Source of the DNA: an uncultured Clostridia bacterium
Lineage (GTDB): Bacteria > Bacillota > Clostridia > Oscillospirales > Ruminococcaceae
DNA length: 64,000 nucleotides
NCBI GenBank assembly: GCA_947307175.1
Contig: CAMZIK010000001.1
Span: forward strand, 21,220-85,219
Direction: 5' to 3'
Below the pieces are notes generated by a model, which was not told where the DNA came from, made no database searches, and was given only the letters and a program-made list of their open reading frames with translations. Below, one piece after another: positions 20,578 to 52,121 of the stretch. The first letter of the stretch is position 1. Each line of letters starts with the position of its first letter. Made by a program: the position numbers and the translations under genes.

Positions 20578-21451
20578 CTTCGTTACCTCTTCCGAGCTTT
20601 GCGTTTATGTTTTTCTGCGTGTCCTCGTCGCCGATAGTATTTATTATCTGCGCGATCTTCGACTGTGCCATGAGATCAAGTACCTTTTCTTCCGGCAGAC
20701 CTCTTGACTGCATATAGAAAATATGCGCCTCGTCAACACGCCCGATAGATGCACCGTGACTGCCCTCAACGTCTTCCTCTGCACAGAGGATAAGCGGAAC
20801 AGTCTTGTTTATCACCTTGTCGCCGATCAGCAGAACGTCCTCGTTTTCTGAGCCGACTGCGCCCACCGAGCCGTTCACAAAGTCGATAGTACCTTTGAAA
20901 AGCTTGCTTGAACAGCCGTCCATAACGCCCTTTGCAGTGATGCTCGACTTTGTCTTCCTGCCGAGATGCCTTGCGATAAGGTTTATATCCAGCTTGTCAT
21001 CACCTGCGAGCAGATAGCCGATGTTCGCCGTGAACTCAGCCTTTCTTCCCGAAAGCTCTGTGTCTATCTCACTTACCGTATCGCCTGTTCCGAGATACAG
21101 CTGTACAAGCTCGAACTTTGCACTGTCCGAAAGCTTTGCATTCACGCTTGCGACAGTCTGCGCCTTGCCTTCAAAAACCTGCACCAGCTTTACCGCCGAG
21201 CTTTCCCCGACCTCAACGCCTGTCCTGATCTGAGCGCTTTTTTCAGAGTTTATGTACATCACAGCGAGCCTGTTCTCTCCGCCCTGTGCGCTTATCTCAA
21301 AAGCGGAACTGTCTGAAACATCAATTATGTTTCTGTCCCCGCCGAGAGAGACAGTCTCTTGCTCAAACGCATCAAGCTCTCTTTGTGTATCGTTTACTCC
21401 CAGCCACGAATAAGTCGGAACAGGGAGCGTGTTCAGTTTTACATTACTCAT
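20570..21451 (-). CDS. sufD: SufD Fe-S assembly protein
   Basis: Beta-helix SufBD domain, EEDVEGSHGASIG and FYMQSRG. Confidence 0.88.
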   Translation of the reverse strand: MSNVKLNTLPVPTYSWLGVNDTQRELDAFEQETVSLGGDRNIIDVSDSSAFEISAQGGENRLAVMYINSEKSAQIRTGVEVGESSAVKLVQVFEGKAQTVASVNAKLSDSAKFELVQLYLGTGDTVSEIDTELSGRKAEFTANIGYLLAGDDKLDINLIARHLGRKTKSSITAKGVMDGCSSKLFKGTIDFVNGSVGAVGSENEDVLLIGDKVINKTVPLILCAEEDVEGSHGASIGRVDEAHIFYMQSRGLPEEKVLDLMAQSKIAQIINTIGDEDTQKNINAKLGRGNEDE

Positions 21452-36926: not shown

Positions 36927-38510
36927 TCAGACAGCACTTGCGCCGTAGTTTGAAAGCACTCTTGCCGACGGATCGTTGACGTCGCAGCCTTTCCAGCTCT
37001 TGTTCGGCATCCAGAAATCCACGATCATCTTGCTCTGACCCGGATAATAGCGCTCAAAGATCTCACGGTAGAGCAGTGACTCCTTCGTGAACGGCTTTGC
37101 ATGCTCGTATTTTTCACTCAGACGGTAGAAATCCTCATCTGTGTAATACTTCTCAGCGTAATCTTTCAGATAGTTTACCAGCGAGTGACCAACTGCATCT
37201 GAGAAAGCAGCCTTCTCTCGGTAGAGTATGTCGTGAGGCAGATAGTCGCCCTGCTCAAATGCCTTTCTCAGCAGGTATTTGCCCTTGCCGTAGGTGTTGA
37301 GCTTCTTTGCAGGGTCGATAGCCATAACATACTTTACAAAATCAAGATCACCGAACGGAACTCTTGCTTCAAGCGAGTTTACGCTGATACATCTGTCTGC
37401 ACGCAGTACATCGTACATATGCAGCTCATGAACTCTTTTCTGTGCTTCCAGCTGGAACTCTCTTGCATTCGGTGCAAAGTCAGTGTACTTGTATCCGAAC
37501 AGCTCATCTGAGATCTCACCCGTAAGGATAACTCTGATGTCGGTCTTCTCGTGGATAGCCTTGCATACAAGATACATACCGATGCTTGCACGGATCGTAG
37601 TGATGTCAAAAGTTCCGAGCAGCTTGACAGTAGGTTCGAGAGCAGCGATAACATCGTCCTTTGTGATAATGACTTCTGTGTGGTCGCTGCCGATATAGTC
37701 AGCAACCTGCTTTGCATATTTCAGGTCGATAGCGTCCTCGCTCATTCCGATAGCGAACGTTTTGATAGGCTTGTCGGACTTCTTCTGTGCGATCGCGCAG
37801 ACAAGTGACGAATCAAGACCGCCTGAGAGCAGGAATCCGACCTTTGCATCTGCCACAAGACGCTTTTCAACGCCTGCAACAAGCTTGTCGTGAATGTTTT
37901 TGTATATCGTTTCGTGGTCGTCAGTGAGATATTTGTCCACCGCAGCAATGTCGCAGTATTTGGTGAACTCACCGTTCACGCAGTAGTACCCTGGGGGGAA
38001 CGGCTTGATGTCAAGTGCGATGCCGATAAGGTTCTGCGGCTCGCTTGCAAAAGCCATAACACCGTTCTCGTCATATCCGTAGTAAAGCGGTCTTATGCCG
38101 ATAGGGTCACGTGCAGCGATGAACTCATGAGTCTCGCCGTCGTAGATGATGCAGGCAAATTCCGCATCGAGCATCGAGAACATTCTCGTTCCGTATTCTC
38201 TGTACATCGGCAGGAGTATCTCGCAGTCCGAATCGCTTTCAAAAGTGAATCCCTTTTTGATAAGCTTTTCTTTTTCCTTTTCAAAACCGTACAGCTCGCC
38301 GTTGCATACAACATAGCTGTCATCAAGCTTGAACGGCTGCATTCCCGAATCGGTCAGACCCATGATAGAGAGCCTGTGGAATCCCAGAACGCCGTCAGGC
38401 AGCGTAACATAACGTGTATCATCAGGACCTCTTGATTTTGTCCTTCCGAAACACTCTTTTATCAGCTCCATATCCGCAATAGCGGAGCAGTAGCCCATTA
38501 TACAACACAT
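36927..38510 (-). CDS. asnB: Asparagine synthase (glutamine-hydrolysing)
   Basis: N-terminal Cys2, SRGPD, CNGELY, RDPIGIRPL, LLSGGLDSS and LEARVPF. Confidence 0.95.
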   Translation of the reverse strand: MCCIMGYCSAIADMELIKECFGRTKSRGPDDTRYVTLPDGVLGFHRLSIMGLTDSGMQPFKLDDSYVVCNGELYGFEKEKEKLIKKGFTFESDSDCEILLPMYREYGTRMFSMLDAEFACIIYDGETHEFIAARDPIGIRPLYYGYDENGVMAFASEPQNLIGIALDIKPFPPGYYCVNGEFTKYCDIAAVDKYLTDDHETIYKNIHDKLVAGVEKRLVADAKVGFLLSGGLDSSLVCAIAQKKSDKPIKTFAIGMSEDAIDLKYAKQVADYIGSDHTEVIITKDDVIAALEPTVKLLGTFDITTIRASIGMYLVCKAIHEKTDIRVILTGEISDELFGYKYTDFAPNAREFQLEAQKRVHELHMYDVLRADRCISVNSLEARVPFGDLDFVKYVMAIDPAKKLNTYGKGKYLLRKAFEQGDYLPHDILYREKAAFSDAVGHSLVNYLKDYAEKYYTDEDFYRLSEKYEHAKPFTKESLLYREIFERYYPGQSKMIVDFWMPNKSWKGCDVNDPSARVLSNYGASAV

Positions 38511-38586: not shown

Positions 38587-40317
38587 TTATTCATCAGTGT
38601 CCTGCAAAGCTTCAAAGCCTTCTTCGCCTGTTCTTACCTTAACAACGTTCTCAACATCGTAAACGAAGATCTTTCCGTCGCCGATATGACCCGTATAGAG
38701 TGCCTTCTTGGCAGTTTCTATAACGCTTCTTACAGGCACCTTTACAACTACGATATCCACCTGTACCTTTGGCATAAGGTTTGTTTCAACAGCAACACCA
38801 CGGTAGTATTCAGGTTTACCCTTTTGTATGCCGTAACCCATAACGTGTGATACCGTCATGCCTGTGATGCCTATCTGGCTCATAGCCTTCTTCAGACGGT
38901 CAAGCTTGGACTCCTTGCATACAATCTCGACCTTGGTGATCTTAGGAGAAGTGCCGTCATCAAAGCTCGGAACCTTCTTGACAGGTATAGCTTCAGCCTC
39001 AGGAGTATCGCCTGCAACAGCAACAACGTCCTGATCGTCATAAGTTGTATACTTGTGAACAGCTGGCATAAAGTCAGGATATGCGCTTGGAAGACCATGC
39101 TCTGTTACGTCAAGTCCGAGTATCTCTTCCTCTGCAGTAGTACGAAGTCCGTTTGTTTTCTTTATGATAGCAAATGTGATTATCATCATTATAGCTGCGT
39201 AAACCGCAACAGAACCGAATCCTGCGAGTTGCAGACCGAGCTGCTTGAACTTGCCTGTGTAGCAAAGACCGTCCAGACCTGCAGGAGCGTCCGGGTTAGC
39301 AAACAGACCAACTGCAATAGTACCCCAGATACCGTTTGCCATATGTACGCCAACAGCACCAACAGGGTCGTCGATGTGGAGCTTGAGGTCGAGGAGTTCA
39401 ACTACCCATACAACCAGGAATCCTGAAACCAGACCTACGGCAGCTGCACCGATAGCATCGAATGCGTCTGTTCCTGCTGTAACAGCTACCAGACCTGCAA
39501 GTGATGCGTTGAGACACATAGAAACGTCGGGCTTGCCGTTCTTTTTCCATGTATAGATCATTGTTGTAACAGTTGCAACTGAAGGAGCGATAGTAGTTGT
39601 GATGAAGATAGATGAAAGCTCCGAAACACTTGTTGCAGCCGCACCGTTAAAGCCGTACCAGCCGAGCCAGAGGATAAATACTCCGAGTGCGCCGAGTGTG
39701 ATCGAGTGACCTGGGATAGCGTTTACCTTGATTACCTTACCGTCCTTATCACGCTCATACTTTCCTATTCTTTCGCCAAGGAACATCGCACCGATCAGAG
39801 CGGCGATACCGCCGACCATGTGGATAGCACAAGAACCTGCGTAGTCATGGAATCCGATCTGTGAAAGCCAACCGCCGCCCCAGATCCAATGCGCTTCGAT
39901 GGGATAGATGAAAAGTGAGATAACAGCTGAGTAGATGCAGTAGCTTGAGAACTTTGTTCTTCCGGCCATTGCGCCCGAAACGATCGTAGCAGTTGTTGCG
40001 CAGAACACGAGGTTGAATACGAATGTAGATGCGCCTGTGAAGCTGCCGTCGCCGGGGCTTGTTATGAATTCCTTGAAGTGAGTGAACATATCAAGGTTTG
40101 GTATACCTATGAGACCAAAGAGAGTATCTTCGCCCATCATAAGTGTGTAACCTAAAAGTGAGAACACAACAGTACCGATGCAGAAATCCATCAGGTTTTT
40201 CATAATGATGTTTCCTGCGTTCTTTGCACGGGTAAAGCCTGTCTCTACCATTGCAAAGCCTGCCTGCATCCAAAAGACCAATGCAGCGCCTATCAAAAAC
40301 CAAAATTCGACTGTCAT
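38587..40317 (-). CDS. amtB: Ammonium transporter fused to a C-terminal PII (GlnB/K) domain
   Basis: FWMQAGFAMVE, HDYAGS, WYGFN and DDPVGAVGVH; PII part GYGIQKG...YRG and TGHIGDGKIFV. Confidence 0.95.
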   Translation of the reverse strand: MTVEFWFLIGAALVFWMQAGFAMVETGFTRAKNAGNIIMKNLMDFCIGTVVFSLLGYTLMMGEDTLFGLIGIPNLDMFTHFKEFITSPGDGSFTGASTFVFNLVFCATTATIVSGAMAGRTKFSSYCIYSAVISLFIYPIEAHWIWGGGWLSQIGFHDYAGSCAIHMVGGIAALIGAMFLGERIGKYERDKDGKVIKVNAIPGHSITLGALGVFILWLGWYGFNGAAATSVSELSSIFITTTIAPSVATVTTMIYTWKKNGKPDVSMCLNASLAGLVAVTAGTDAFDAIGAAAVGLVSGFLVVWVVELLDLKLHIDDPVGAVGVHMANGIWGTIAVGLFANPDAPAGLDGLCYTGKFKQLGLQLAGFGSVAVYAAIMMIITFAIIKKTNGLRTTAEEEILGLDVTEHGLPSAYPDFMPAVHKYTTYDDQDVVAVAGDTPEAEAIPVKKVPSFDDGTSPKITKVEIVCKESKLDRLKKAMSQIGITGMTVSHVMGYGIQKGKPEYYRGVAVETNLMPKVQVDIVVVKVPVRSVIETAKKALYTGHIGDGKIFVYDVENVVKVRTGEEGFEALQDTDE

Positions 40318-40455
40318 AGGATCATATCCTTTCTATATTTATCTTTCCTTACTTTACTATAATTAGATAAAAGCCGTCCGTTCCTGTACGAAGATGGAAG
40401 TTATTTGTTGTTCACGCTATTGAAACAAAGCAGGAGACAGACGGCTTTTTAATAC

Positions 40456-42552
40456 TTATCTTACACCGAACAGAAGCTCGTCATAAGTCGGGAATGGCCA
40501 GAACTTAGCAGCTGTGATAGTTTCAGCCTCATCGCAGGAAGCTCTGAGCTTATCCATTACGCCCAGCAGCTCATCTCTGATAAGATAGCCTTCCTCGATA
40601 ACGTCCTTTGCACCCTGAACTTTTTCAAGTGCCTTTGAAAGCTCATCGAGGCTATTGTAAGCATCGCTTGCAAGCTGAGAGAGCTTCTTGACCGTTTCTG
40701 CCTCATATGTGCAGGTAAGGTCGGTAGCGAGTGATTTTTTAGCGTTAGCCGTTTTAGCAACGAAAGCTGCATATTCTTCGATCGCAGGAAGAATCTCTCT
40801 GCGAGCGATAAGCTCCATAGTATTTGCCTCGATAACAACTGCTTTGCAGTAGTTTTCAAGAGTGATCTCTGTACGGCTGCGAAGCTCTGCCTCAGAGAAT
40901 ACCTTGTGAGATGTCAGCATCTTAACGTTCTTTTCGTCCATAAGATGCGGGATAGCATCAGGAGTCGTGCGGTAGTTGAGCAGACCTCTTACCTCAGTTG
41001 CCTCCTTGATCCAGGCATCGTCATAGCCGTTTCCGTTGAAGATGATGCGCTTGTGATCGGTGATAGTCTTCTTGATCATCTCGTGAAGCTTTTCTTCAAA
41101 GTTATCTGCCTTTTCAAGTCTGTCTGCGTAGATCTTCAGGCTTTCTGCAACAGCAGCGTTGAGCATGATATTTGCGCATGCGATAGAGTTTGAAGAACCG
41201 AGCATTCTGAACTCGAACTTGTTTCCTGTGAAAGCGAACGGTGAAGTTCTGTTTCTGTCCGTTGTATCTCTTGAGAAGCTTGGCAGAACACTTACGCCCA
41301 GCTTCATGACCTTCTTTTCAACACCCTCATACGGTGTGTCTGTCTCAATTGCCTTGAGGATACCTTCAAGCTCTTCACCGAGGAAGATAGAGATAACAGC
41401 CGGAGGAGCTTCGTTAGCACCGAGTCTGTGGTCGTTGCCTGCCGTTGCAACTGAAATTCTCAGCAGATCCTGATAATCGTCAACAGCCTTGATAACTGCA
41501 CACAGGAACAGCAGGAACTGTGCGTTCTCGTAAGGTGTCTCGCCCGGTGTCAGCAGGTTTACGCCTGTGTCCGTTGCGATAGACCAGTTGTTGTGCTTGC
41601 CCGAACCGTTGACATTAGCGAACGGCTTTTCGTGCAGCAGGCAAACAAGTCCGTGTTTCTTAGCGACCTTCTGCATGATCTCCATAGTCAGCTGGTTGTG
41701 GTCGGTCGCAATATTAGTTGTTGCGTAGATAGGAGCAAGCTCGTGCTGAGCAGGTGCGACCTCGTTGTGCTGAGTTTTAGCGAGGATTCCGAGCTTCCAG
41801 AGTTCCTCGTTCAGATCGGACATGTAAGCCTCGACTCTCGGCTTGATAACGCCGAAGTAGTGGTCGTCAAGCTCCTGCCCTTTGGGCGGCTTAGCTCCGA
41901 AAAGCGTTCTGCCGGTATAAATAAGGTCTTTTCTTTTATCGTAGAGTTCCTTTGGAATGAGGAAGTATTCCTGTTCCGGTCCTACCGATGTCGTAACGTG
42001 CTGTACAGTATCATTTCCGAACAGTCTCAGGATACGCAGTGCCTGCTTGTTGAGTGCCTGCATCGAACGAAGCAGAGGAGTCTTTTTGTCCAGTGCCTCT
42101 CCGCCGTATGAGCAGAAAGCTGTCGGAATGCAAAGTGTCTTTCCTTTAATAAATGCATAAGATGTCGGATCCCATGCTGTATATCCTCTTGCCTCAAATG
42201 TAGCTCTGAGTCCGCCGGAAGGAAAGCTCGATGCATCAGGCTCACCCTTGATAAGTTCCTTGCCGGAGAAGTCCATGATAACTCTGCCGTCAGGTGAAGG
42301 CGAGATGAAGCTGTCGTGCTTTTCAGCAGTGATGCCGGTCAGCGGCTGGAACCAGTGTGTGTAGTGTGTCGCACCGTTTTCAACTGCCCACTCCTTCATA
42401 GCCTCAGCTACTGCGTTTGCAACTGTGATGTCCAGCTTTGCACCGATGTCGATGGTCTCTTTCAATGACTTGTAGACCTTGGACGAAAGCCTGGATTTCA
42501 TCACTCTGTCATCAAATACCTTGCTTGCAAAAATTTCTGTTACATTGCTCAT
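40456..42552 (-). CDS. glnA: Glutamine synthetase type III (GlnN)
   Basis: 698 aa; [49 protein letters not shown] and [17 protein letters not shown]. Confidence 0.95.
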
Positions 42553-42583: not shown

Positions 42584-42779
42584 AATAAAAGCGCCCTTGC
42601 GCAGAAGATGCTCTGCGGTAAGGACGCCGTTGCCCGATATTATATATAAGGTGTACCGATGCTGCCAAAAAGCAGCTGTAACAAAAAAATAGAGACAAAT
42701 ACTTGAAGTTGACCAGTTTACTTCAAGACTCCTTTGCCTCTATGTCTTGCATTATACACCCTCATTTTTGATTTGTCAA
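42584..42779 (-). promoter_or_regulatory. GS-III promoter plus two tandem attenuator terminators, each overlapped by an ANTAR-type hexaloop hairpin
   Basis: TTGACA-17-TATAAT (42779-42751). Hairpin GGC-AAAGGA-GTC (42738-42727) sits in the 5' arm of terminator 42741-42683. Hairpin GGGC-AACGGC-GTCC (42635-42622) overlaps terminator 42628-42584. Confidence 0.75.
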
Positions 42780-42852: not shown

Positions 42853-42945
42853 TTGACAAAAATGAAATTCTGAGTTATAATACTTGCAAATGGGCAAAGG
42901 CGTTCATTCAGCTTGCGGGCTGAGTGACGCCTTTTTTATTTTTTT
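42853..42945 (+). promoter_or_regulatory. glt operon promoter plus attenuator terminator with ANTAR-type hairpin
   Basis: TTGACA-17-TATAAT. GGGC-AAAGGC-GTTC (42892-42905) overlaps the stem AAAGGCGTTCATTCAGC/GCTGAGTGACGCCTTT, followed by a T-run. Confidence 0.75.
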
Positions 42946-43065
42946 ACTTGTAAGAGATAAGAGGTAAGATGTAAGAAAAACACCATAGCCTAAGACTATA
43001 TTTTTCTTACCACTTACTTCTGAAAAGTGAAGCGATCTTGATTATTCTAAAAGGGAGAGATGATA

Positions 43066-44160
43066 ATGTTGAAAAGAGAAGGAGAGATCCGTATCCCGTC
43101 AGGCTGTGCGATAGCAGCCGTTATATCAAAAGAGGGAAAGGGTATCAGAGGCGATCTTATCTCAGAGGCAATGAAGCCGATGCATGACCGTTCAAACGGA
43201 CTTGGCGGCGGTTTTGCAGGCTATGGCATTTACCCGGAGATGAGAGATTTTTTTGCCTTCCACATTTTCTTTGACCACCGTTCAACCAGAAAAGAGTGCG
43301 AAGCATTATTAAAGGAAAGGTTTGAGATCGTAAAGGGCGAGCTTATCCCTACAAGGAAGATCCCCCAGATAACCGATGAGCCTATCATCTGGAGATATTT
43401 TGTCGCACCTCTGAAATCAATGCTTGCAGCCGAGCAGATAGATGAGAACGAGTTCGTTGCAAGAACCGTTGTAAAGATCAATACCCAGCTCAAAGGCGCA
43501 TATGTGTTTTCCAGCGGAAAGAATATGGGCTGCTTCAAGGCAGTAGGCTTCCCTGAAGATGTCGGAGAGTTTTACAGACTTGAAGAATATGAAGGATATT
43601 CCTGGACAGCTCACGGACGTTACCCGACCAACACTCCTGGCTGGTGGGGCGGCGCTCACCCGTTCTCGCTGCTTGATTATTCGGTAGTTCATAATGGCGA
43701 AATATCCTCATACGATGCCAACAGAAGATATATTGAAATGTTCGGATATAAATGTACCCTTCAGACAGATACCGAGGTCATCACTTATATAATAGACTAC
43801 CTGCTCAGAAGACAGAAGCTTACTCTTGAAGAGGTCGCTTCGGTCATCGCAGCACCGTTTTGGAGTACGATAAATGCAAAACCTGAAAAGGAAAAAGAAA
43901 AGCTTACCTATCTGCGTACAGTCTTTTCAAATCTGCTTATAACAGGACCGTTCTCAATAGTATTCGGCTGGGACGGCGGACTCATGGCTCTCAATGACCG
44001 CCTCAAGCTTCGTTCGATGATAACCGCCGAAAAAGACGATAAGGTATTCATCGCAAGCGAAGAAGCCGCAATAATCGCAATGGAACCGGAAGCAGAGAAT
44101 TTCTATGCGCCAAGCGGCGGAGAGCCTGTTATAGTTCGTGTCAAGGAGGGTAAATTCTGA
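43066..44160 (+). CDS. Glutamate synthase amidotransferase subunit (GltB domain 1)
   Basis: SGCAI, DRSNGLGGGF, AHGRYPTN, HNGEISS and TDTEV. Confidence 0.9.
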   Translation: MLKREGEIRIPSGCAIAAVISKEGKGIRGDLISEAMKPMHDRSNGLGGGFAGYGIYPEMRDFFAFHIFFDHRSTRKECEALLKERFEIVKGELIPTRKIPQITDEPIIWRYFVAPLKSMLAAEQIDENEFVARTVVKINTQLKGAYVFSSGKNMGCFKAVGFPEDVGEFYRLEEYEGYSWTAHGRYPTNTPGWWGGAHPFSLLDYSVVHNGEISSYDANRRYIEMFGYKCTLQTDTEVITYIIDYLLRRQKLTLEEVASVIAAPFWSTINAKPEKEKEKLTYLRTVFSNLLITGPFSIVFGWDGGLMALNDRLKLRSMITAEKDDKVFIASEEAAIIAMEPEAENFYAPSGGEPVIVRVKEGKF

Positions 44161-45665
44161 TGATAGATCAATATATATATCCTGAATTTGAAGTGGTAAG
44201 AAATCAGAACCGCTGTATTTCCTGCCGTGTGTGCGAAAGGCAGTGCGCAAACGAGGTACACCGTTATGATACAGACCTCGGAGTAATGCTTTCGGACGAG
44301 ACTAAATGTGTGAATTGTCAGAGATGTGTTTCGCTCTGTCCGACCCACGCTCTTAAAATAGTAAAGAGCGACTGCCGCTTGCGTGAGAACGCAAACTGGT
44401 CCGACCAGACCATCAAAGAGGTCTATAAGCAGGCAAACAGCGGCGGCGTGCTGCTGTCGTCAATGGGTAACCCTACACCGCTTCCTGTCTATTGGGACAA
44501 GATCCTTATCAATGCCTCACAGGTTACTAACCCGCCTATCGACCCGCTGAGAGAACCAATGGAAACTAAAGTCTTCCTCGGCAAAAAGCCCGAAAAGGTG
44601 CTGCGCCGTGCAAGCGGTGAGCTTATCACACAGATGCCTCCGCAGATCGAGCTTTCCATGCCTGTGATGTTCTCAGCGATGAGCTACGGCTCAATAAGCT
44701 ATAACGCCCACGCATCTCTTGCAAGAGCAGCAACAGAGCTTGGTATCTGCTATAACACAGGTGAAGGCGGTCTGCATGAAGACTTCTACTGCTATGGCGA
44801 GAACACCATAGTCCAGGTCGCATCAGGACGTTTCGGAGTTCATAAGAATTATCTTGAAGCCGCAGCCGCAGTCGAAATAAAAATGGGACAGGGCGCTAAG
44901 CCGGGTATCGGCGGACACCTGCCGGGCGCGAAAATCGTCGGAGACATTTCAAGGACCAGAATGATCCCCGAAGGCTCAGACGCTATCTCGCCTGCACCTC
45001 ATCATGACATCTATTCGATCGAAGACCTCAGACAGCTCGTTTATTCGCTCAAAGAAGCGACCGACTATAAAAAGCCTGTCATCATCAAGGTCGCAGCCGT
45101 TCATAATATCGCCGCTATCGCCAGCGGTATCGCAAGAAGCGGAGCAGATATAATCGCTATCGACGGCTTCAGAGGCGGTACAGGCGCAGCTCCGACAAGG
45201 ATAAGAGACAACGTCGGTATCCCGATAGAGCTTGCCCTTGCAGCCGTTGACCAGAGACTTCGTGACGAAGGAATAAGAAATAATGTTTCACTCGTTGTCG
45301 GAGGAAGCGTGCGCTCCGCAGCAGATGTTGTCAAGGCTGTCGCTCTCGGCGCAGATGCAGTCTATGTTGCCACCGCAGCGCTGCTCGCACTTGGCTGCCA
45401 CCTCTGCCGTACCTGCCACAGCGGCAAGTGCAACTGGGGTATCGCGACCCAGAGACCTGACCTTGTCAAGAGGCTCAACCCCGATATAGGAAGCCGCAGA
45501 CTTGTCAATCTGATGAATGCTTGGCGTCATGAGATAAAAGAACTCATGGGAGCTATGGGCATCAACTCCATCGAATGTCTGCGTGGAAACAGACTTATGC
45601 TCAGAGGCGTTGGTCTGACCGCAAAAGAGCTTGAGATACTCGGCATCTCGCACGCCGGAGAATAA
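44160..45665 (+). CDS. Glutamate synthase FMN-binding subunit with 2x[4Fe-4S] (GltB domain 2)
   Basis: CISCRVC, CVNCQRC, AMSYGSIS, NTGEGG, EIKMGQGAKPG and CHLCRTC. Confidence 0.92.
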   Translation: MIDQYIYPEFEVVRNQNRCISCRVCERQCANEVHRYDTDLGVMLSDETKCVNCQRCVSLCPTHALKIVKSDCRLRENANWSDQTIKEVYKQANSGGVLLSSMGNPTPLPVYWDKILINASQVTNPPIDPLREPMETKVFLGKKPEKVLRRASGELITQMPPQIELSMPVMFSAMSYGSISYNAHASLARAATELGICYNTGEGGLHEDFYCYGENTIVQVASGRFGVHKNYLEAAAAVEIKMGQGAKPGIGGHLPGAKIVGDISRTRMIPEGSDAISPAPHHDIYSIEDLRQLVYSLKEATDYKKPVIIKVAAVHNIAAIASGIARSGADIIAIDGFRGGTGAAPTRIRDNVGIPIELALAAVDQRLRDEGIRNNVSLVVGGSVRSAADVVKAVALGADAVYVATAALLALGCHLCRTCHSGKCNWGIATQRPDLVKRLNPDIGSRRLVNLMNAWRHEIKELMGAMGINSIECLRGNRLMLRGVGLTAKELEILGISHAGE

Positions 45666-45683
45666 CGAAAGGGGATAGCACAA

Positions 45684-46124
45684 ATGAAACGAGTATATGT
45701 AAATGAAAAATGGTGTCTGGGCTGTCACCTTTGCGAATACAACTGTGCTTTTGCCAATTCGGGAATGACCGATATGGTCAAGGCGCTGAAGGACAAGCCT
45801 ATCTATCCCCGTGTCCACATCGAGCAGTCAGATGACATCACCTATGCTGTCTCCTGCCGCCACTGCAAAGACCCGCTTTGCGTGAAAAGCTGTATCGCAG
45901 GAGCGATAAGCATCGTTGACGGCGTCGTAAAGATAGACAAAACAAAATGCGTCGGCTGCCTGACCTGCGTTCTGGTCTGCCCGTACGGCGCAGTAAGACC
46001 GGGACCGACAGGCGCTGCACAGAAGTGCGAGCTTTGCCTTGAAAACAGCTGCGGCGAGCCTGCCTGTGTAAAAGGCTGCCCGAACAATGCGATAGTTTAT
46101 GAGGAAAGGCAGGAAGAAAAATGA
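45684..46124 (+). CDS. 4Fe-4S dicluster ferredoxin-like protein
   Basis: CLGCHLC, CRHC..PLC, CVGCLTC and KCELC motifs. Confidence 0.92.
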   Translation: MKRVYVNEKWCLGCHLCEYNCAFANSGMTDMVKALKDKPIYPRVHIEQSDDITYAVSCRHCKDPLCVKSCIAGAISIVDGVVKIDKTKCVGCLTCVLVCPYGAVRPGPTGAAQKCELCLENSCGEPACVKGCPNNAIVYEERQEEK

Positions 46125-47359
46125 GCAAGTTTGTTATAATCGGAAACGGCGTTGCTGCCGCAGGCTGCATCGAAGGTATCCGCAGCATTGACAAGGAAAG
46201 CGAGATAACCGTTATCTCTGCCGAAAAGCACCCTGTATATTCGAGACCTCTTATCTCATACTATCTTGAAGGCAAGACCACTCTTGAAAAGATGAACTAC
46301 CGCAGCGAGGATTTTTATGAAAAAAATAAAGCCGAGCTGGTCTATGCATCAGCTGAAAAAATAGATCTCAAAAAAGGCGAAGTTGCATTCGGCAGCAAGA
46401 AAACAAAGTTCGATAAGCTCTGCATCGCCGCAGGCTCATCACCTTTCGTTCCGCCGATGGACGGTCTTGACAGCGTAAAAGAGAAGTTCACATTCATGAC
46501 CATGGACGATAGCCTTGCACTTGAAAAGGCACTGAAAAAAGACAGCAGAGTGCTGATCGTCGGCGCTGGTCTTATCGGTCTCAAATGTGCCGAGGGCATA
46601 CTTGAAAGAGTAGGCAGCGTAACAGTCGTTGACCTTGCCGACAGAGTTCTTTCAAGTATCCTCGATAATGAGTGCGCAGCTGTGATGCAAAAGCATCTCG
46701 AAAGCAAAGGTATGAAGTTCCTGCTTTCTGACAGCGTTGCAAAGCTTGAAACGGATAAAGCCGTAATGAAAAGCGGCAAGACTGTGGAGTTCGATGTGCT
46801 TGTGCTTGCCGTCGGCGTAAGAGCCAATACTCAGCTCGCCAAGGACGCAGGCGCAGAGGTCAACAGAGGAATCATCATCGACACCAAAATGCAGACTACA
46901 CTTGAAAATGTCTATGCCGCAGGCGACTGCACCGAGGGCTATGACAGCTCCATAGATGCAAACAGAGTGCTTGCTATCCTGCCAAATGCCTATATGCAGG
47001 GCTTCTGCGCAGGAGTGAATATGGCAGGCGGCGACAGCAGCATAACAAATGCAATACCAATGAACTCCATCGGCTTCTTCGGTCTGCATTGTACAAGTGC
47101 AGGCAGCTACTTTGCACAGGGCGAAGGCGAGGTATATGAGGAAAAAAGCTGCGGCGGCATAAAAAGACTGTATATCAAAGACAATAAACTTACCGGATAT
47201 ATCATCATCGGTGATGTGACAGGAGCCGGAATATATACGAGAATTATACGTGAAAAGACGGATTTGAGCGGAGTAAATATAGACAAATTGAAAAATAATG
47301 CAACACTGGCTATGTTTTTGCCCGAAACCCGTAGAAAAATGCTCGGAGGTGTGGTATAA
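46121..47359 (+). CDS. NAD(P)/FAD-dependent oxidoreductase (glutamate synthase-associated)
   Basis: IIGNGVAA, IVGAGLIG and YAAGDC. Confidence 0.9.
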   Translation: MSKFVIIGNGVAAAGCIEGIRSIDKESEITVISAEKHPVYSRPLISYYLEGKTTLEKMNYRSEDFYEKNKAELVYASAEKIDLKKGEVAFGSKKTKFDKLCIAAGSSPFVPPMDGLDSVKEKFTFMTMDDSLALEKALKKDSRVLIVGAGLIGLKCAEGILERVGSVTVVDLADRVLSSILDNECAAVMQKHLESKGMKFLLSDSVAKLETDKAVMKSGKTVEFDVLVLAVGVRANTQLAKDAGAEVNRGIIIDTKMQTTLENVYAAGDCTEGYDSSIDANRVLAILPNAYMQGFCAGVNMAGGDSSITNAIPMNSIGFFGLHCTSAGSYFAQGEGEVYEEKSCGGIKRLYIKDNKLTGYIIIGDVTGAGIYTRIIREKTDLSGVNIDKLKNNATLAMFLPETRRKMLGGVV

Positions 47360-48078
47360 TGAATATCAATGCAACAGGTCTTGACTTTGTTGACCTTAAT
47401 GAAGCACTGCGTCAGAGCCGCGGCAACTGCAATATCACCCATTGTCTCGGTCAGCGTTTCCTTGCCGCAGGCATCTCCGATAAGACCGTAACAGTGAGCG
47501 GTGTGCCGGGAAATGCGCTGGGAGCGTATCTCAACGGCGCAAAGATAGAAGTCATGGGAAATGCTCAGGATGCAGTCGGCGATACTATGAACGACGGAAC
47601 GATAGTGATCCACGGAAACGTCGGCGATGCAGTCGGCTATGCGATGCGCGGAGGACACATCTATGTCCAGGGCAACGCAGGCTACCGTGCAGGTATCCAT
47701 ATGAAAGCCTATAAGGAAAAACAGCCTGCACTCATCATCGGCGGAAAGGCTGGAAGCTTCCTTGGAGAGTATCAGGCAGGCGGAACTATCATCGTGCTTG
47801 GTCTTGCTGATAACGATAAGCCTATCGTCGGCAATTTCCCGTCAACGGGAATGCACGGCGGAAAAATGTATCTGCGCAGCGACTGCAAGGACATCAGGTT
47901 CCCAAGTCAGGTCCATACGCACCCGGCAAGCAAGGAAGAACTTGATGAGATAGACCACTATCTCAGGCATTACTGCAGTTACTTTGATAAGGACCTCAAA
48001 GAGCTGCTGGATTCACCTTTCACCGTCGTTATGCCTGACAGCCGCAACCCGTACCGTCAGATGTACGTAGCAAATTAG
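47359..48078 (+). CDS. Glutamate synthase GXGXG subunit (GltB domain 3)
   Basis: GQRFLAAG, GNALGAYLNG, GDTMNDG and GEYQAGG repeats. Confidence 0.9.
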   Translation: MNINATGLDFVDLNEALRQSRGNCNITHCLGQRFLAAGISDKTVTVSGVPGNALGAYLNGAKIEVMGNAQDAVGDTMNDGTIVIHGNVGDAVGYAMRGGHIYVQGNAGYRAGIHMKAYKEKQPALIIGGKAGSFLGEYQAGGTIIVLGLADNDKPIVGNFPSTGMHGGKMYLRSDCKDIRFPSQVHTHPASKEELDEIDHYLRHYCSYFDKDLKELLDSPFTVVMPDSRNPYRQMYVAN

Positions 48079-48164
48079 AGTCAAGATAAAAAAAGGAGCA
48101 AGAGGCAGGATGAAGATCTTACCTCTTACATCTGTTTCTTACATCTAATATACAGGAGGACACT

Positions 48165-49373
48165 ATGAAATATACACCTCAGGAGATAATACAATATGCC
48201 GCAGAAGAAGATGTCAAATTCATACGTCTTGCATTCTGCGATGTTTACGGAAAGCAGAAGAACATTTCTATAATGCCCGGCGAGCTTGAGAGAGCCTTTG
48301 AGCAGGGAATTGGCTTTGATGCGTCTGCTGTCAGAGGTTTTGGCAACGAGGCAAGAAGCGATCTGATGCTTTTCCCCGATCCTGATACGCTTTCGGTGCT
48401 TCCGTGGCGACCCGAGCATGGCAGGGTAGTGAGAATGTTCTGCTCGATAAAAAAGCCTAACGGACAGCCGTTTGAATGTGATACCAGAAGCCTTCTGGTC
48501 AAGGCTGCTGAGGAGGCAAAAAAGCAGGGGATAGATTTTTCGTTCGGTTCTGCGCTGGAGTTTTACCTGTTCAAGCTCGACGAAAATGACAACCCTACCA
48601 CAATACCCTATGATACTGCAAGCTATATGGATATTGCTCCCGAGGACAAGGGAGAAAATATCAGAAGACAGATCTGCCTGCACCTTGAACAGATGGGAAT
48701 AATCCCGCAAAGCTCCCACCATGAAGAAGGACCCGGTCAGAACAAGATAGATTTCCACTATTCCGGTCCGCTTACTGCCGCAGACGATGTTATGTCCTAT
48801 AAGACCGTCGTAAAGACAGTTGCACATTCAAACGGCCTGATCGCAGATTTTTCGCCCAAACCGCTGAAGGATAAACCGGGCAATGCTTTTCATATAAACA
48901 TCTCGATAAAAAGCGACAAGACCCACACCTTGCTGCCGTCCGTGATCGCAGGTATCATGCAGCATATCAAGGATATAACCCTTTTCCTTGATCCCTGCAA
49001 TGCTTCGTATGAGCGACTCGGAAAGTTCAAAGCGCCTAAGTATATCTCATGGTCAGGCGAAAACCGTTCGCAGCTCGTGCGCATACCTGCCGCAAAAGGA
49101 GAGTACAGACGAGCAGAGCTTCGCTGCGCAGACCCCACCGCAAACCCGTATCTTGCCTATACCCTGCTCATCTATGCAGGACTGTACGGCATAAAAAATG
49201 AACTGTATCTTCCGCCTGTCGCCGATTTTGACCTGTTCAGCGCAGACGAGTCAGTGACAAGATCTTTCGATACGCTTCCGTCAAATCTTTCACAGGCGAA
49301 AAAATATGCCTCGGAAAGCGAATTTGTCAAAGCATATCTGCCGCAGAGACTCATCGACATCTACTGCAAATAA
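48165..49373 (+). CDS. Glutamine synthetase type I homolog with degenerate active site
   Basis: FIRLAFCD, GFDAS, RSQLVRIP and ELRCADPTANPYL are present, but GSALEF, GQNKIDF and RLGKFKAP replace three catalytic Glu. Confidence 0.88.
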   Translation: MKYTPQEIIQYAAEEDVKFIRLAFCDVYGKQKNISIMPGELERAFEQGIGFDASAVRGFGNEARSDLMLFPDPDTLSVLPWRPEHGRVVRMFCSIKKPNGQPFECDTRSLLVKAAEEAKKQGIDFSFGSALEFYLFKLDENDNPTTIPYDTASYMDIAPEDKGENIRRQICLHLEQMGIIPQSSHHEEGPGQNKIDFHYSGPLTAADDVMSYKTVVKTVAHSNGLIADFSPKPLKDKPGNAFHINISIKSDKTHTLLPSVIAGIMQHIKDITLFLDPCNASYERLGKFKAPKYISWSGENRSQLVRIPAAKGEYRRAELRCADPTANPYLAYTLLIYAGLYGIKNELYLPPVADFDLFSADESVTRSFDTLPSNLSQAKKYASESEFVKAYLPQRLIDIYCK

Positions 49374-49393
49374 AGAAAAAGCAGGAACATGAT

Positions 49394-49855
49394 ATGGAGG
49401 ATATACAATATAAATGGACTGACGGAACAGACAGCGATTTTCAGGTGTTCTATCAGATAACCGAAAACTTTTACAGCAGCCTTGTCGGCGGAGAAAGCAA
49501 GAGAAGCGGATTTGTCCCGTATAACGCATCTGCCGAAATACCCGATGTTATCATCGCCAGTCAGGACGGCAAAGCAGTCGGCTGTGCAGGCTTGAAAAAA
49601 TATGATGACAAGAGTACAGAGATAAAGCGTGTCTGGGTCCAGCCCGGATACAGAGGTCACCATATCGCAAGCGAAATGATGACGCTTGCAGAAAATAAAG
49701 CCAGACAGCAGGGCTTTGAACGTGTCATTCTTCAGACAAGACCGCAGATGACAGAGGCTGTTAGTATGTATAAAAACAGGGGATATGACCTGATCGAAAA
49801 TTATCCGCCTTACGATAAACTCGTAGGTGCGGTGTGCTATGCAAAAAAGCTTTGA
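49394..49855 (+). CDS. GNAT N-acetyltransferase
   Basis: EIKRVWVQPGYRGHHIA and MYKNRGY. Confidence 0.85.
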   Translation: MEDIQYKWTDGTDSDFQVFYQITENFYSSLVGGESKRSGFVPYNASAEIPDVIIASQDGKAVGCAGLKKYDDKSTEIKRVWVQPGYRGHHIASEMMTLAENKARQQGFERVILQTRPQMTEAVSMYKNRGYDLIENYPPYDKLVGAVCYAKKL

Positions 49856-49889
49856 TGCTTTAACTATACTGTCAGAAGGAGGGATACAT

Positions 49890-50477
49890 TTGCAGCTGAA
49901 AGAACGCAGATACAGCGTACTGATAGCTTCGTCGCAGCCAAAATTCAATCAGGCACTCAAAGAGCTGATAGATTCAAGACGAAACTACGACAGCGAGCTT
50001 GAAATGAGCGTCAGCTCCGCAAAAAGACGGCTGCTTGAACGCAGCTTTGATATGTTGATCATCAATGTACCTCTTCCCGATGATGATGGGATCAGCCTTG
50101 CGATAGACCGCAGCGCAGGAATGGGAAGCGCCGTGCTTTTGCTCATCAAGAGTGAGTATTATTCCGACGTGTTCGACAGAGTGTGTCCTCACGGCGTATA
50201 TACTCTCCCCAAGCCTTCGCCGAGGCAGATGGTATCGCAGGCATTCGACTGGCTCGAAAGCACAAAGGAACGGCTTCGCAGACTTGAAAAGAAGTCTGTG
50301 TCGCTTGAAGATAAAATGCAGGAGATACGCCTTGTGAACAGGGCAAAATGGCTGCTTATCACCGAAAAGGGCATGACCGAAGAGGACGCCCACCGCTGTA
50401 TCGAAAAGCTTGCCATGAACAACTGCATAACCAAAAGTGCCGCAGCTCAGGCGATCATTGATGAAAAGGACAGCTGA
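49890..50477 (+). CDS. Pseudo-receiver plus ANTAR RNA-binding antiterminator
   Basis: TTG start after GGAGG. ANTAR motif RLVNRAKWLL...MTEEDAHRCIEKLAMN. The receiver lacks the acidic pocket and has N at the phospho-Asp position (LIINVPLP). Confidence 0.88.
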   Translation: MQLKERRYSVLIASSQPKFNQALKELIDSRRNYDSELEMSVSSAKRRLLERSFDMLIINVPLPDDDGISLAIDRSAGMGSAVLLLIKSEYYSDVFDRVCPHGVYTLPKPSPRQMVSQAFDWLESTKERLRRLEKKSVSLEDKMQEIRLVNRAKWLLITEKGMTEEDAHRCIEKLAMNNCITKSAAAQAIIDEKDS

Positions 50478-50489
50478 AAAGTGCTGTAA

Positions 50490-52121
<1,632 letters not shown>

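Follow-up and report, generated by a model that had tools for sequence, protein, structure and literature searches.

A glutamine synthetase-like protein with replaced catalytic residues as candidate sensor partner of a NitR-type ANTAR protein in a Ruminococcaceae nitrogen operon

A type I glutamine synthetase (GS) gene followed by the gene of a response-regulator-like ANTAR protein and linked to glutamate synthase (GOGAT) genes is known from the glnA-nitR(-gltAB) cluster of Clostridium saccharobutylicum and C. acetobutylicum (Stutz et al. 2007, as summarised in PMC6316151). According to this summary, the GS and GOGAT genes are induced by antitermination under nitrogen limitation; it calls the NitR-type regulation of clostridial nitrogen assimilation incompletely understood and does not mention a sensor. 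In C. thermocellum, the region Clo1313_2030-2036 comprises GOGAT parts, a type I glnA and an ANTAR regulator gene (PMC4676874). Here, we analyse a locus of this kind in a stretch of 64,000 nucleotides (nt), in the following called the window, which represents positions 21,220 to 85,219 of contig CAMZIK010000001.1 from an uncultured Clostridia bacterium of the family Ruminococcaceae (GenBank assembly GCA_947307175.1). The names carried by homologues and by related contigs point to a Ruminococcus of the rumen. The genes in question encode a GS-I-like protein of 402 amino acids (aa) and, two genes downstream, an ANTAR protein.

The general circuit, consisting of GS-I, ANTAR and GOGAT genes, corresponds to the glnA-nitR arrangement already known from clostridia. 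What the sequence comparisons appear to add is the pseudoenzyme state of the GS-like protein, the repeated loss of catalysis among its relatives, a target site with a single hairpin, and an indication for 2-oxoglutarate (2-OG) as the signal. From these we consider it probable that a catalytically dead GS paralogue acts as a metabolite sensor for the NitR-type ANTAR protein, its partner, and controls the leaders of nitrogen genes.

Catalytic state and spread of the GS-like gene

The translated region from 48165 to 49370 was aligned with HMMER to solved GS I-alpha structures of Bacillus subtilis (Bs; 4lnf/4s0r). An initial annotation, made by eye from the sequence, had claimed the replacement of three essential glutamates, and the alignment confirms all of them. 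E132 of the B. subtilis enzyme corresponds to A130 (GPEPEF reads GSALEF) and E196 to K194 (GQHEIDF reads GQNKIDF), while the flap glutamate E304 (E327 in St numbering) corresponds to K289 in a motif shortened by one residue (PGYEAP reads G-KFKAP). Four of the six metal ligands are present, Bs E132 and E196 being those replaced. The protein retains E132 (Bs E134), E187 (Bs E189), H243 (Bs H245), E318 (Bs E333) and D52 as well as the catalytic arginines R284, R301, R306 and R320, which agrees with the earlier statement that the Arg and His residues remain. It has an internal deletion of 12 residues, and its C-terminus is short by about 25 residues. The domain families PF03951 (Gln-synt_N) and PF00120 (Gln-synt_C) match with 85.7 and 268.6 bits, and the GlnA model TIGR00653 of NCBIfam reaches 322.4 bits, missing the equivalog cut-off of 429.15. 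Judged by its sequence, the 402-aa protein is very unlikely to have working GS activity.

Glutamine synthesis in this organism has other candidates. The intact GS III that had been noticed at 40456 is indeed full length, with the E, E and H motifs kept, and is likely the working glutamine synthetase of this genome. The genome, which is 99.8% complete, contains one GS-I-like gene, one ANTAR gene and two GS III genes, the second of which is located on a different contig. The two GS III genes can supply GS activity.

The GS-like gene is well preserved. Compared with eight orthologues with the same A/K/K pattern, the ratio of non-synonymous to synonymous substitution rates (dN/dS) is 0.02-0.07, which contradicts the possibility, named in the initial annotation as a point that would speak against its reading, that the substitutions are strain-specific decay. 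More than 100 cluster representatives, with identities as low as 69%, have an unbroken frame of 402 aa. In four bovine gut metatranscriptomes, contigs match the gene at 95-99% identity and span its junctions with the following acetyltransferase and ANTAR genes at low depth; they indicate presence, with DNA carry-over possible, and cannot reveal attenuation.

To describe the spread of the gene pair, 150 genera of the family were surveyed with one genome each, and 83 of these genomes contained a GS-I-like gene. A GS was defined as canonical if R62, H195 and the flap VPGYEAP were all present. In the one-genome-per-genus set, 81 of 87 GS-I-like genes are directly followed by an ANTAR gene. Among non-canonical GS-I-like genes, an ANTAR gene is next downstream in 92 of 94 cases; the median gap between the open frames of the pair is 14 nt, and many overlap. 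Five of the six canonical genes have no ANTAR neighbour. Since related genomes are not independent samples, these counts represent a pattern and do not amount to a statistical test. The sole canonical GS with an ANTAR gene behind it (R62, flap VPGYEAP) was found in another genus (locus L098), where the five receiver positions of the ANTAR protein all deviate (F, E, G, S, T); this may be an intermediate or an unrelated arrangement.

The hallmarks of the ANTAR-linked GS family are the loss of Bs R62, the exchange H195N and the flap deletion of one residue. With respect to the catalytic state, 33 of the 81 ANTAR-linked genes are complete, 23 lack the flap glutamate only, and in 25 a metal ligand or a catalytic arginine is gone. 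Catalytic loss is thus found in 48 of 81 genes; its patterns are diverse, and a quick maximum-likelihood tree requires at least 13 state changes to explain them. A comparison of genomes for co-occurrence of the losses with ANTAR neighbours had been proposed earlier, and the survey revealed that loss of catalytic residues is almost confined to ANTAR-linked copies. The three glutamates differ in this respect. The short forms of the protein (about 402-410 aa) represent one clade (Shimodaira-Hasegawa-like approximate likelihood ratio test, SH-aLRT, 98) with a common flap exchange from Glu to Lys, so this replacement holds clade-wide; E132A and E196K arose later, in the subclade of the window (support 99), and are present at 86% identity or more only. 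In view of this repeated loss, the GS-like protein itself is a candidate for the sensor of NitR-type regulation.

Outside the family, short-form GS-like genes with the flap lysine and an ANTAR neighbour were observed in metagenome-assembled genomes (MAGs) of Treponema (L016) and Lachnospiraceae (L018). Both are nested within the Ruminococcus-type clade on the tree, which suggests horizontal spread of the pair.

The ANTAR protein and its hairpin-terminator leaders

The ANTAR gene probably starts with TTG at 49890, preceded by the ribosome binding site (RBS) AGGAGG at 49877-49882; the longest open reading frame (ORF) starts with GTG at 49827. The ANTAR domain PF03861 is recognised with 51 bits (cut-off 27.3), and the protein aligns with the ANTAR-type response regulator Rv1626 (PDB 6wsh), NasR and AmiR. 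In comparison with Rv1626 (1s8n), SS takes the place of the acidic pair ED, the phosphorylated aspartate is replaced by asparagine (IINVPLP) and the threonine by lysine; the lysine of the receiver is kept. These replacements substantiate the earlier view that the phospho-Asp and the acidic pocket are missing. The asparagine is widely shared: 87 of 97 ANTAR proteins linked to GS-like genes carry asparagine at the phosphorylation site. By these residues, the protein is a pseudo-receiver that would be unable to accept a phosphoryl group. As had been noted, no kinase is encoded nearby; a Pfam scan of the 15 ORFs between 36.9 and 53.2 kb detected neither HisKA nor HATPase families.

In the window, the pair is interrupted by a gene for a GNAT acetyltransferase, whose best NCBIfam matches are weak (RimI, amino-acid N-acetyltransferase, ArsN). 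Gaps of similar or larger size separate the pair at six loci of the same clade (L009-L013, L017), and the two genes are directly adjacent in all other genera and in the second copy of one MAG (L014). This spacing implies that an insert, which is the GNAT gene in the window, is restricted to this clade.

Characterised ANTAR targets carry two hexaloop hairpins, and the loop positions A1 and G4 are determinants of binding (PMC3369931). The pattern found here has the consensus NNNC-AANGRN-GNNN, i.e. one hexaloop hairpin that starts 8-15 nt after the -10 box and whose 3' arm also makes up the first part of the 5' arm of an intrinsic terminator. It emerged solely through the comparison of leaders: Rfam gave no match in the window at gathering thresholds, and a generic search for dual A..G.. 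hexaloops yielded scattered, chance-like matches, none of them at nitrogen leaders. A P1-type hairpin in the glt leader (UUGC-AAAUGG-GCAA) was rejected; it overlaps the conserved hairpin, has no G4 and is located at the predicted transcript start or 5' of it.

In 50 aligned leaders, A1, A2 and G4 of the loop and the closing C-G pair are invariant. The other pairs of the stem covary, with 72 double-change cells compared to 22.5 in shuffles, and with a covariation score of 0.764 compared to 0.05-0.17 when the partners are slid. The loop AAAGGC accounts for 27 of the 134 A..G.. hexaloops that are accompanied by promoter and terminator. A whole-genome scan for hairpin plus terminator gave 35 matches, as opposed to 13-20 in shuffled sequence; because the scan alone is not specific, sites were counted only with a promoter and in a position 5' of a gene.

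Besides the glt and GS III leaders of the window, at least five more switches are found elsewhere in the genome, namely in front of NadE, a FUSC/HAD gene, a CP-ATP-grasp/Alpha-E pair, an ABC ATPase (two switches in tandem) and an AraC-GDH-AlaDH cluster. In many other genera, the hairpin-terminator element is located directly 5' of the GS-like/ANTAR pair and of its opposite-strand neighbour, which is GS III at both loci checked (the window and L001, a locus from another genus); in L001, AmtB is also preceded by the element. Together, the sites of the window and of its genome define the ANTAR regulon, as far as binding can be predicted from the leaders.

Proposed circuit, its ligand and competing explanations

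In the proposed circuit, a type I-alpha GS paralogue that no longer makes glutamine would have been retained as the sensor for the ANTAR protein of the same operon. The ANTAR protein would bind the single C-AANGRN-G hairpin early in its target transcripts, and binding would prevent termination, because the 3' arm of the hairpin is needed for the following intrinsic terminator. The targets would comprise the operon itself (split GOGAT, GS-like, ANTAR and pyrG genes), GS III, NadE, the AraC-GDH-AlaDH cluster and a few others, with GS III placed under two switches in series and with AmtB-PII and AsnB downstream of it. Since the receiver cannot be phosphorylated, the activity of the ANTAR protein must be set by a partner, for which the invariably adjacent GS-like protein would be the obvious candidate. 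Depending on the nitrogen status, it would retain the antiterminator or let it go, comparable to AmiC-AmiR or NasS-NasT. The RNA binding, the contact between the two proteins, the ligand and the sign of regulation are the steps that we infer.

As to the ligand, the 2-OG pocket of GlnA1 from Methanosarcina mazei (Mm) is built by F24, R26, S38, R87, R172, R173 and S189 (PMC11957540). Residues were transferred from M. mazei to the window protein by a constant offset of +5, which also fits D57, R66, the RR pair and SHHE. The equivalents are F19, R21, N33, R82, R167, R168 and S184, so six of seven are identical (N33 stands for S38). F19, R82, R167 and R168 are invariant in all 94 family members, including 34 in which catalytic residues are lost, and S184 is found in 91; the catalytic positions, in contrast, are variable. 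Feedback by glutamine relies on Bs R62 or Mm R66, the M. mazei mutant R66A being insensitive (PMC11957540); this position is N61 in the window protein and is not arginine in any of the 94 members. As a caveat, the amino-acid site is likewise almost unchanged in the family at R284, E132 and R320, so that Glu or Gln may be bound as well. On balance, the residue patterns make 2-OG, bound at the intersubunit pocket, more likely as the ligand than glutamine.

The initial annotation had proposed glutamine as the signal: the dead GS would sense it like the feedback-inhibited B. subtilis GS, which acts on TnrA and GlnR, and would sequester or activate the ANTAR protein. Glutamine-dependent regulation by GS has this precedent (PMC6316151), the residues that hold the backbone of Glu or Gln are kept (R284 in 94, E132 in 90 and R320 in 91 of 94 members, as well as G239 and H243), and most members of the regulon produce or use glutamine, i.e. 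GS III, GOGAT, PyrG, NadE and AsnB. However, the feedback arginine is replaced in the entire family, the flap glutamate, which also touches the product, is lysine in the short forms, and the metal ligands that shape the site are gone in many lineages. With the 2-OG pocket invariant, we regard glutamine as a doubtful signal; sensing in the B. subtilis manner, as predicted from these residues, is unlikely.

The contact between the two proteins was modelled with two GS-like chains and residues 27-216 of the ANTAR protein. In the calibration of this method, the mark was reached by 55 of 80 solved complexes and by 3 of 110 mismatches. The window pair scored 0.49 (best control 0.00). It thereby passed the mark and was rated as weakly supported; this score falls into the range up to 0.60 where passes in the calibration were mostly mismatches. 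In the models of both the window pair and the pair from L001, the linker helix of the ANTAR protein is placed on the same GS surface, formed by the N-terminal helix and residues 73-78 and 176-178. This surface borders the R82 loop and helix alpha-3, the regions that move upon 2-OG binding in M. mazei (PMC11957540). The modelled position beside a 2-OG-responsive region is suggestive only.

Several observations weigh against a sensor role of the GS-like protein and against the scheme of targets and ligand built around it. About 40% of the ANTAR-linked family keep every catalytic residue, and by their sequences these members may be true enzymes; sensing and catalysis are compatible in one protein. 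The pair from L001 scored 0.28 in the complex prediction and thus remained under the mark. A second hexaloop hairpin (P2) was not found at the switches, the predicted transcript start being located about 10 nt before the single one. Because instances were selected for pairing, the percentage of paired positions is circular as an argument, and the covariation alone counts as evidence. Furthermore, canonical GS I-alpha proteins also hold the 2-OG pocket (F and R167 in six of six, R82 in four of six), so its invariance is perhaps partly structural.

Some of these points would fit an explanation in which the GS-like and ANTAR proteins share nothing but their co-expression. Control of the ANTAR protein would then come from elsewhere (a PII protein, a small molecule bound to the pseudo-receiver or its own concentration), and the GS-like protein would have a different role, for instance as a modulator of GOGAT or GS III or as a ligase whose chemistry has changed. 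Here, the GS-like gene is part of the GOGAT operon and a PII domain, fused to AmtB, is encoded nearby; the catalytically complete members and a complex prediction that is weak for the window and negative for L001 would also be accounted for. On the other hand, what stays next to the GS-like gene from genus to genus is the ANTAR gene and not GOGAT or GS III. The pair constitutes an operon of its own in many genera, as deduced from the hairpin leader directly 5' of the GS-like gene, and its tight or overlapping junctions suggest coupled translation. The many different patterns of catalytic loss match no single new chemistry. We rate mere co-expression as quite improbable. The GS-like protein was also considered as a GOGAT subunit, an idea that was dropped since the pair is found apart from the GOGAT genes in other genera. 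That the gene is a decaying duplicate without a function of its own, as its three replaced catalytic residues, the shortened protein and the foreign GNAT gene behind it might suggest, is hardly credible given the low dN/dS, the intact frame, the lack of a second GS-I copy in the genome and the metatranscriptome contigs across gene and junctions, DNA carry-over being possible for the latter.

The dead GS paralogue as sensing partner of the ANTAR protein can be extended to a more far-reaching version. In many gut and rumen Clostridia, the GS fold may have been converted repeatedly into a dedicated 2-OG receptor that directly gates an ANTAR antiterminator and, together with the single-hexaloop switch, constitutes a master nitrogen regulator. 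We put this forward tentatively and consider it rather less likely than not. If true, it would be a circuit of pseudoenzyme sensor, pseudo-receiver and RNA without a characterised equivalent. If the GS-like protein is the sensor, this would account for the reading of nitrogen status in many rumen and gut Firmicutes. It would also be a clean case of the transition from enzyme to receptor, in which catalytic residues were lost independently many times and the allosteric pocket stayed invariant, and it would widen RNA recognition by ANTAR proteins to targets with a single hairpin. The subject is relevant to nitrogen-use efficiency in the rumen and to engineered amino-acid secretion in cellulolytic clostridia such as C. 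thermocellum. When the type I glnA is deleted in the latter organism, nitrogen-assimilation genes and glutamine reportedly go up, as would be expected from a sensor that sequesters the antiterminator. The deletion is said to 'deregulate nitrogen metabolism' in the title of the report (Rydzak 2017, cited in PMC9888227).

Features of the locus and comparison with known systems

The features of the locus are compiled in Table 1. On the forward strand, the order of the operon is five split-GOGAT genes (43060-48078), GS-like, GNAT, ANTAR and pyrG. PyrG, whose gene is also located behind the ANTAR gene in L001, is probably the final gene of the glt operon.

Table 1. Features of the window (positions within the 64,000-nt stretch) and further switches of the same genome
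Feature	Position	Strand	Remarks
Asparagine synthetase AsnB, glutamine-dependent	36927-38510	-	3' of GS III
AmtB-PII fusion	38587-40317	-	3' of GS III
GS type III	40456..42552	-	698 aa, full length; E, E and H motifs kept
Second, tandem GS III leader switch	42584..42635	-	hairpin gggc-AACGGC-gtcc + terminator, just 5' of RBS
First GS III leader switch	42683..42741	-	hairpin gaggc-AAAGGA-gtctt + terminator
Promoter of GS III	TTGACA 42779-42774, TATAAT 42756-42751	-	
glt operon promoter	42853..42881	+	sigma-70-type; TTGACA 42853-42858, 17 nt spacer, TATAAT 42876-42881
glt leader switch	42892..42945	+	hairpin gggc-AAAGGC-gttc 42892-42905; stem to 42931, U tract to 42945
Split GOGAT, GATase_2	43060-44160	+	
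Split GOGAT, Fer4 + FMN domain	44160-45665	+	
Split GOGAT, Fer4	45684-46124	+	
Split GOGAT, Pyr_redox_2	46121-47359	+	
Split GOGAT, GXGXG	47359-48078	+	
GS-I-like pseudoenzyme (predicted)	48165..49373	+	402 aa; HMMER alignment, family scans
GNAT acetyltransferase	49394..49855	+	153 aa, between GS-like and ANTAR genes
NitR-like ANTAR antiterminator, pseudo-receiver (predicted)	49890..50477	+	probable TTG start after RBS AGGAGG
CTP synthase PyrG	50511..52121	+	33 nt past ANTAR stop
Further switches, L007 (contig C12)	949-4715		
Further switch, L110 (contig C128)	about 248		

Some additional elements were observed in the noncoding parts. Between GS III and AmtB-PII, the reverse strand harbors a long hairpin at 40318-40455 (AAAAGCCGTC...GACGGCTTTT) without an ANTAR-type hexaloop, which possibly acts within the operon as a partial terminator or as a processing site. 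Past the terminator of the glt leader, four TAAGA repeats with a period of 7 nt are located at 42951-42976 (2 matches compared to 0.01 expected). An inverted copy follows 20 nt downstream at 43001-43021, so that a 21-bp hairpin is possible before the first RBS, and a further complementary copy is found on the same transcript, 5.1 kb away, at 48116-48133, just 5' of the RBS of the GS-like gene. L012 and L017 have TAAGA repeats at the matching leader position, too.

Among the known systems, the glnA-nitR cluster is closest by gene content, and two differences are apparent: the GlnA proteins of that cluster are treated as working enzymes, whereas the window protein lacks two metal ligands and the flap glutamate, and the pair is separated by the GNAT gene in the window. 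The cluster of C. thermocellum has the same split-GOGAT parts as the window and is likened to it by gene arrangement. A published sensor composed of a GS pseudoenzyme and an ANTAR protein was not found in literature searches.

With regard to the RNA element, the leaders of the window resemble the targets of EutV from Enterococcus faecalis (PMC3369931) in the loop positions A1 and G4 and in a hairpin that overlaps the 5' arm of the terminator. EutV, however, is phosphorylated by EutW and requires two hairpins, and the targets of NasR and AmiR are likewise of the two-hairpin type. In contrast, the window switches have one hairpin per terminator at about 10 nt from the predicted transcript start, with an invariant C-G pair and A2.

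For the GS fold, two active enzymes serve as references. GlnA1 of M. mazei, a 2-OG-activated GS I-alpha (8tfb, PMC11957540), is about 45% identical to the window protein; it is inhibited by glutamine via R66, whereas the window protein has asparagine there and lacks catalytic residues. The B. subtilis enzyme is a GS I-alpha trigger enzyme that reports nitrogen status to a regulator by direct contact, as would be the case here. It differs in that it is catalytic, senses glutamine via R62 and acts on the MerR-type DNA-binding proteins TnrA and GlnR and not on an RNA-binding ANTAR protein.

The closest parallels to the proposed mechanism are AmiC-AmiR of Pseudomonas aeruginosa (1qo0) and NasS-NasT of Paracoccus denitrificans (PMC3795266). 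In both, a non-phosphorylatable ANTAR protein is controlled by a ligand-binding partner from a neighbouring gene, as proposed for the window, and ligand binding frees the antiterminator. AmiR itself matches the ANTAR protein of the window weakly (E-value 5e-4). The partners AmiC and NasS have folds like periplasmic binding proteins, whereas the candidate partner of the window has the GS fold, its contact with the ANTAR protein being a proposal.

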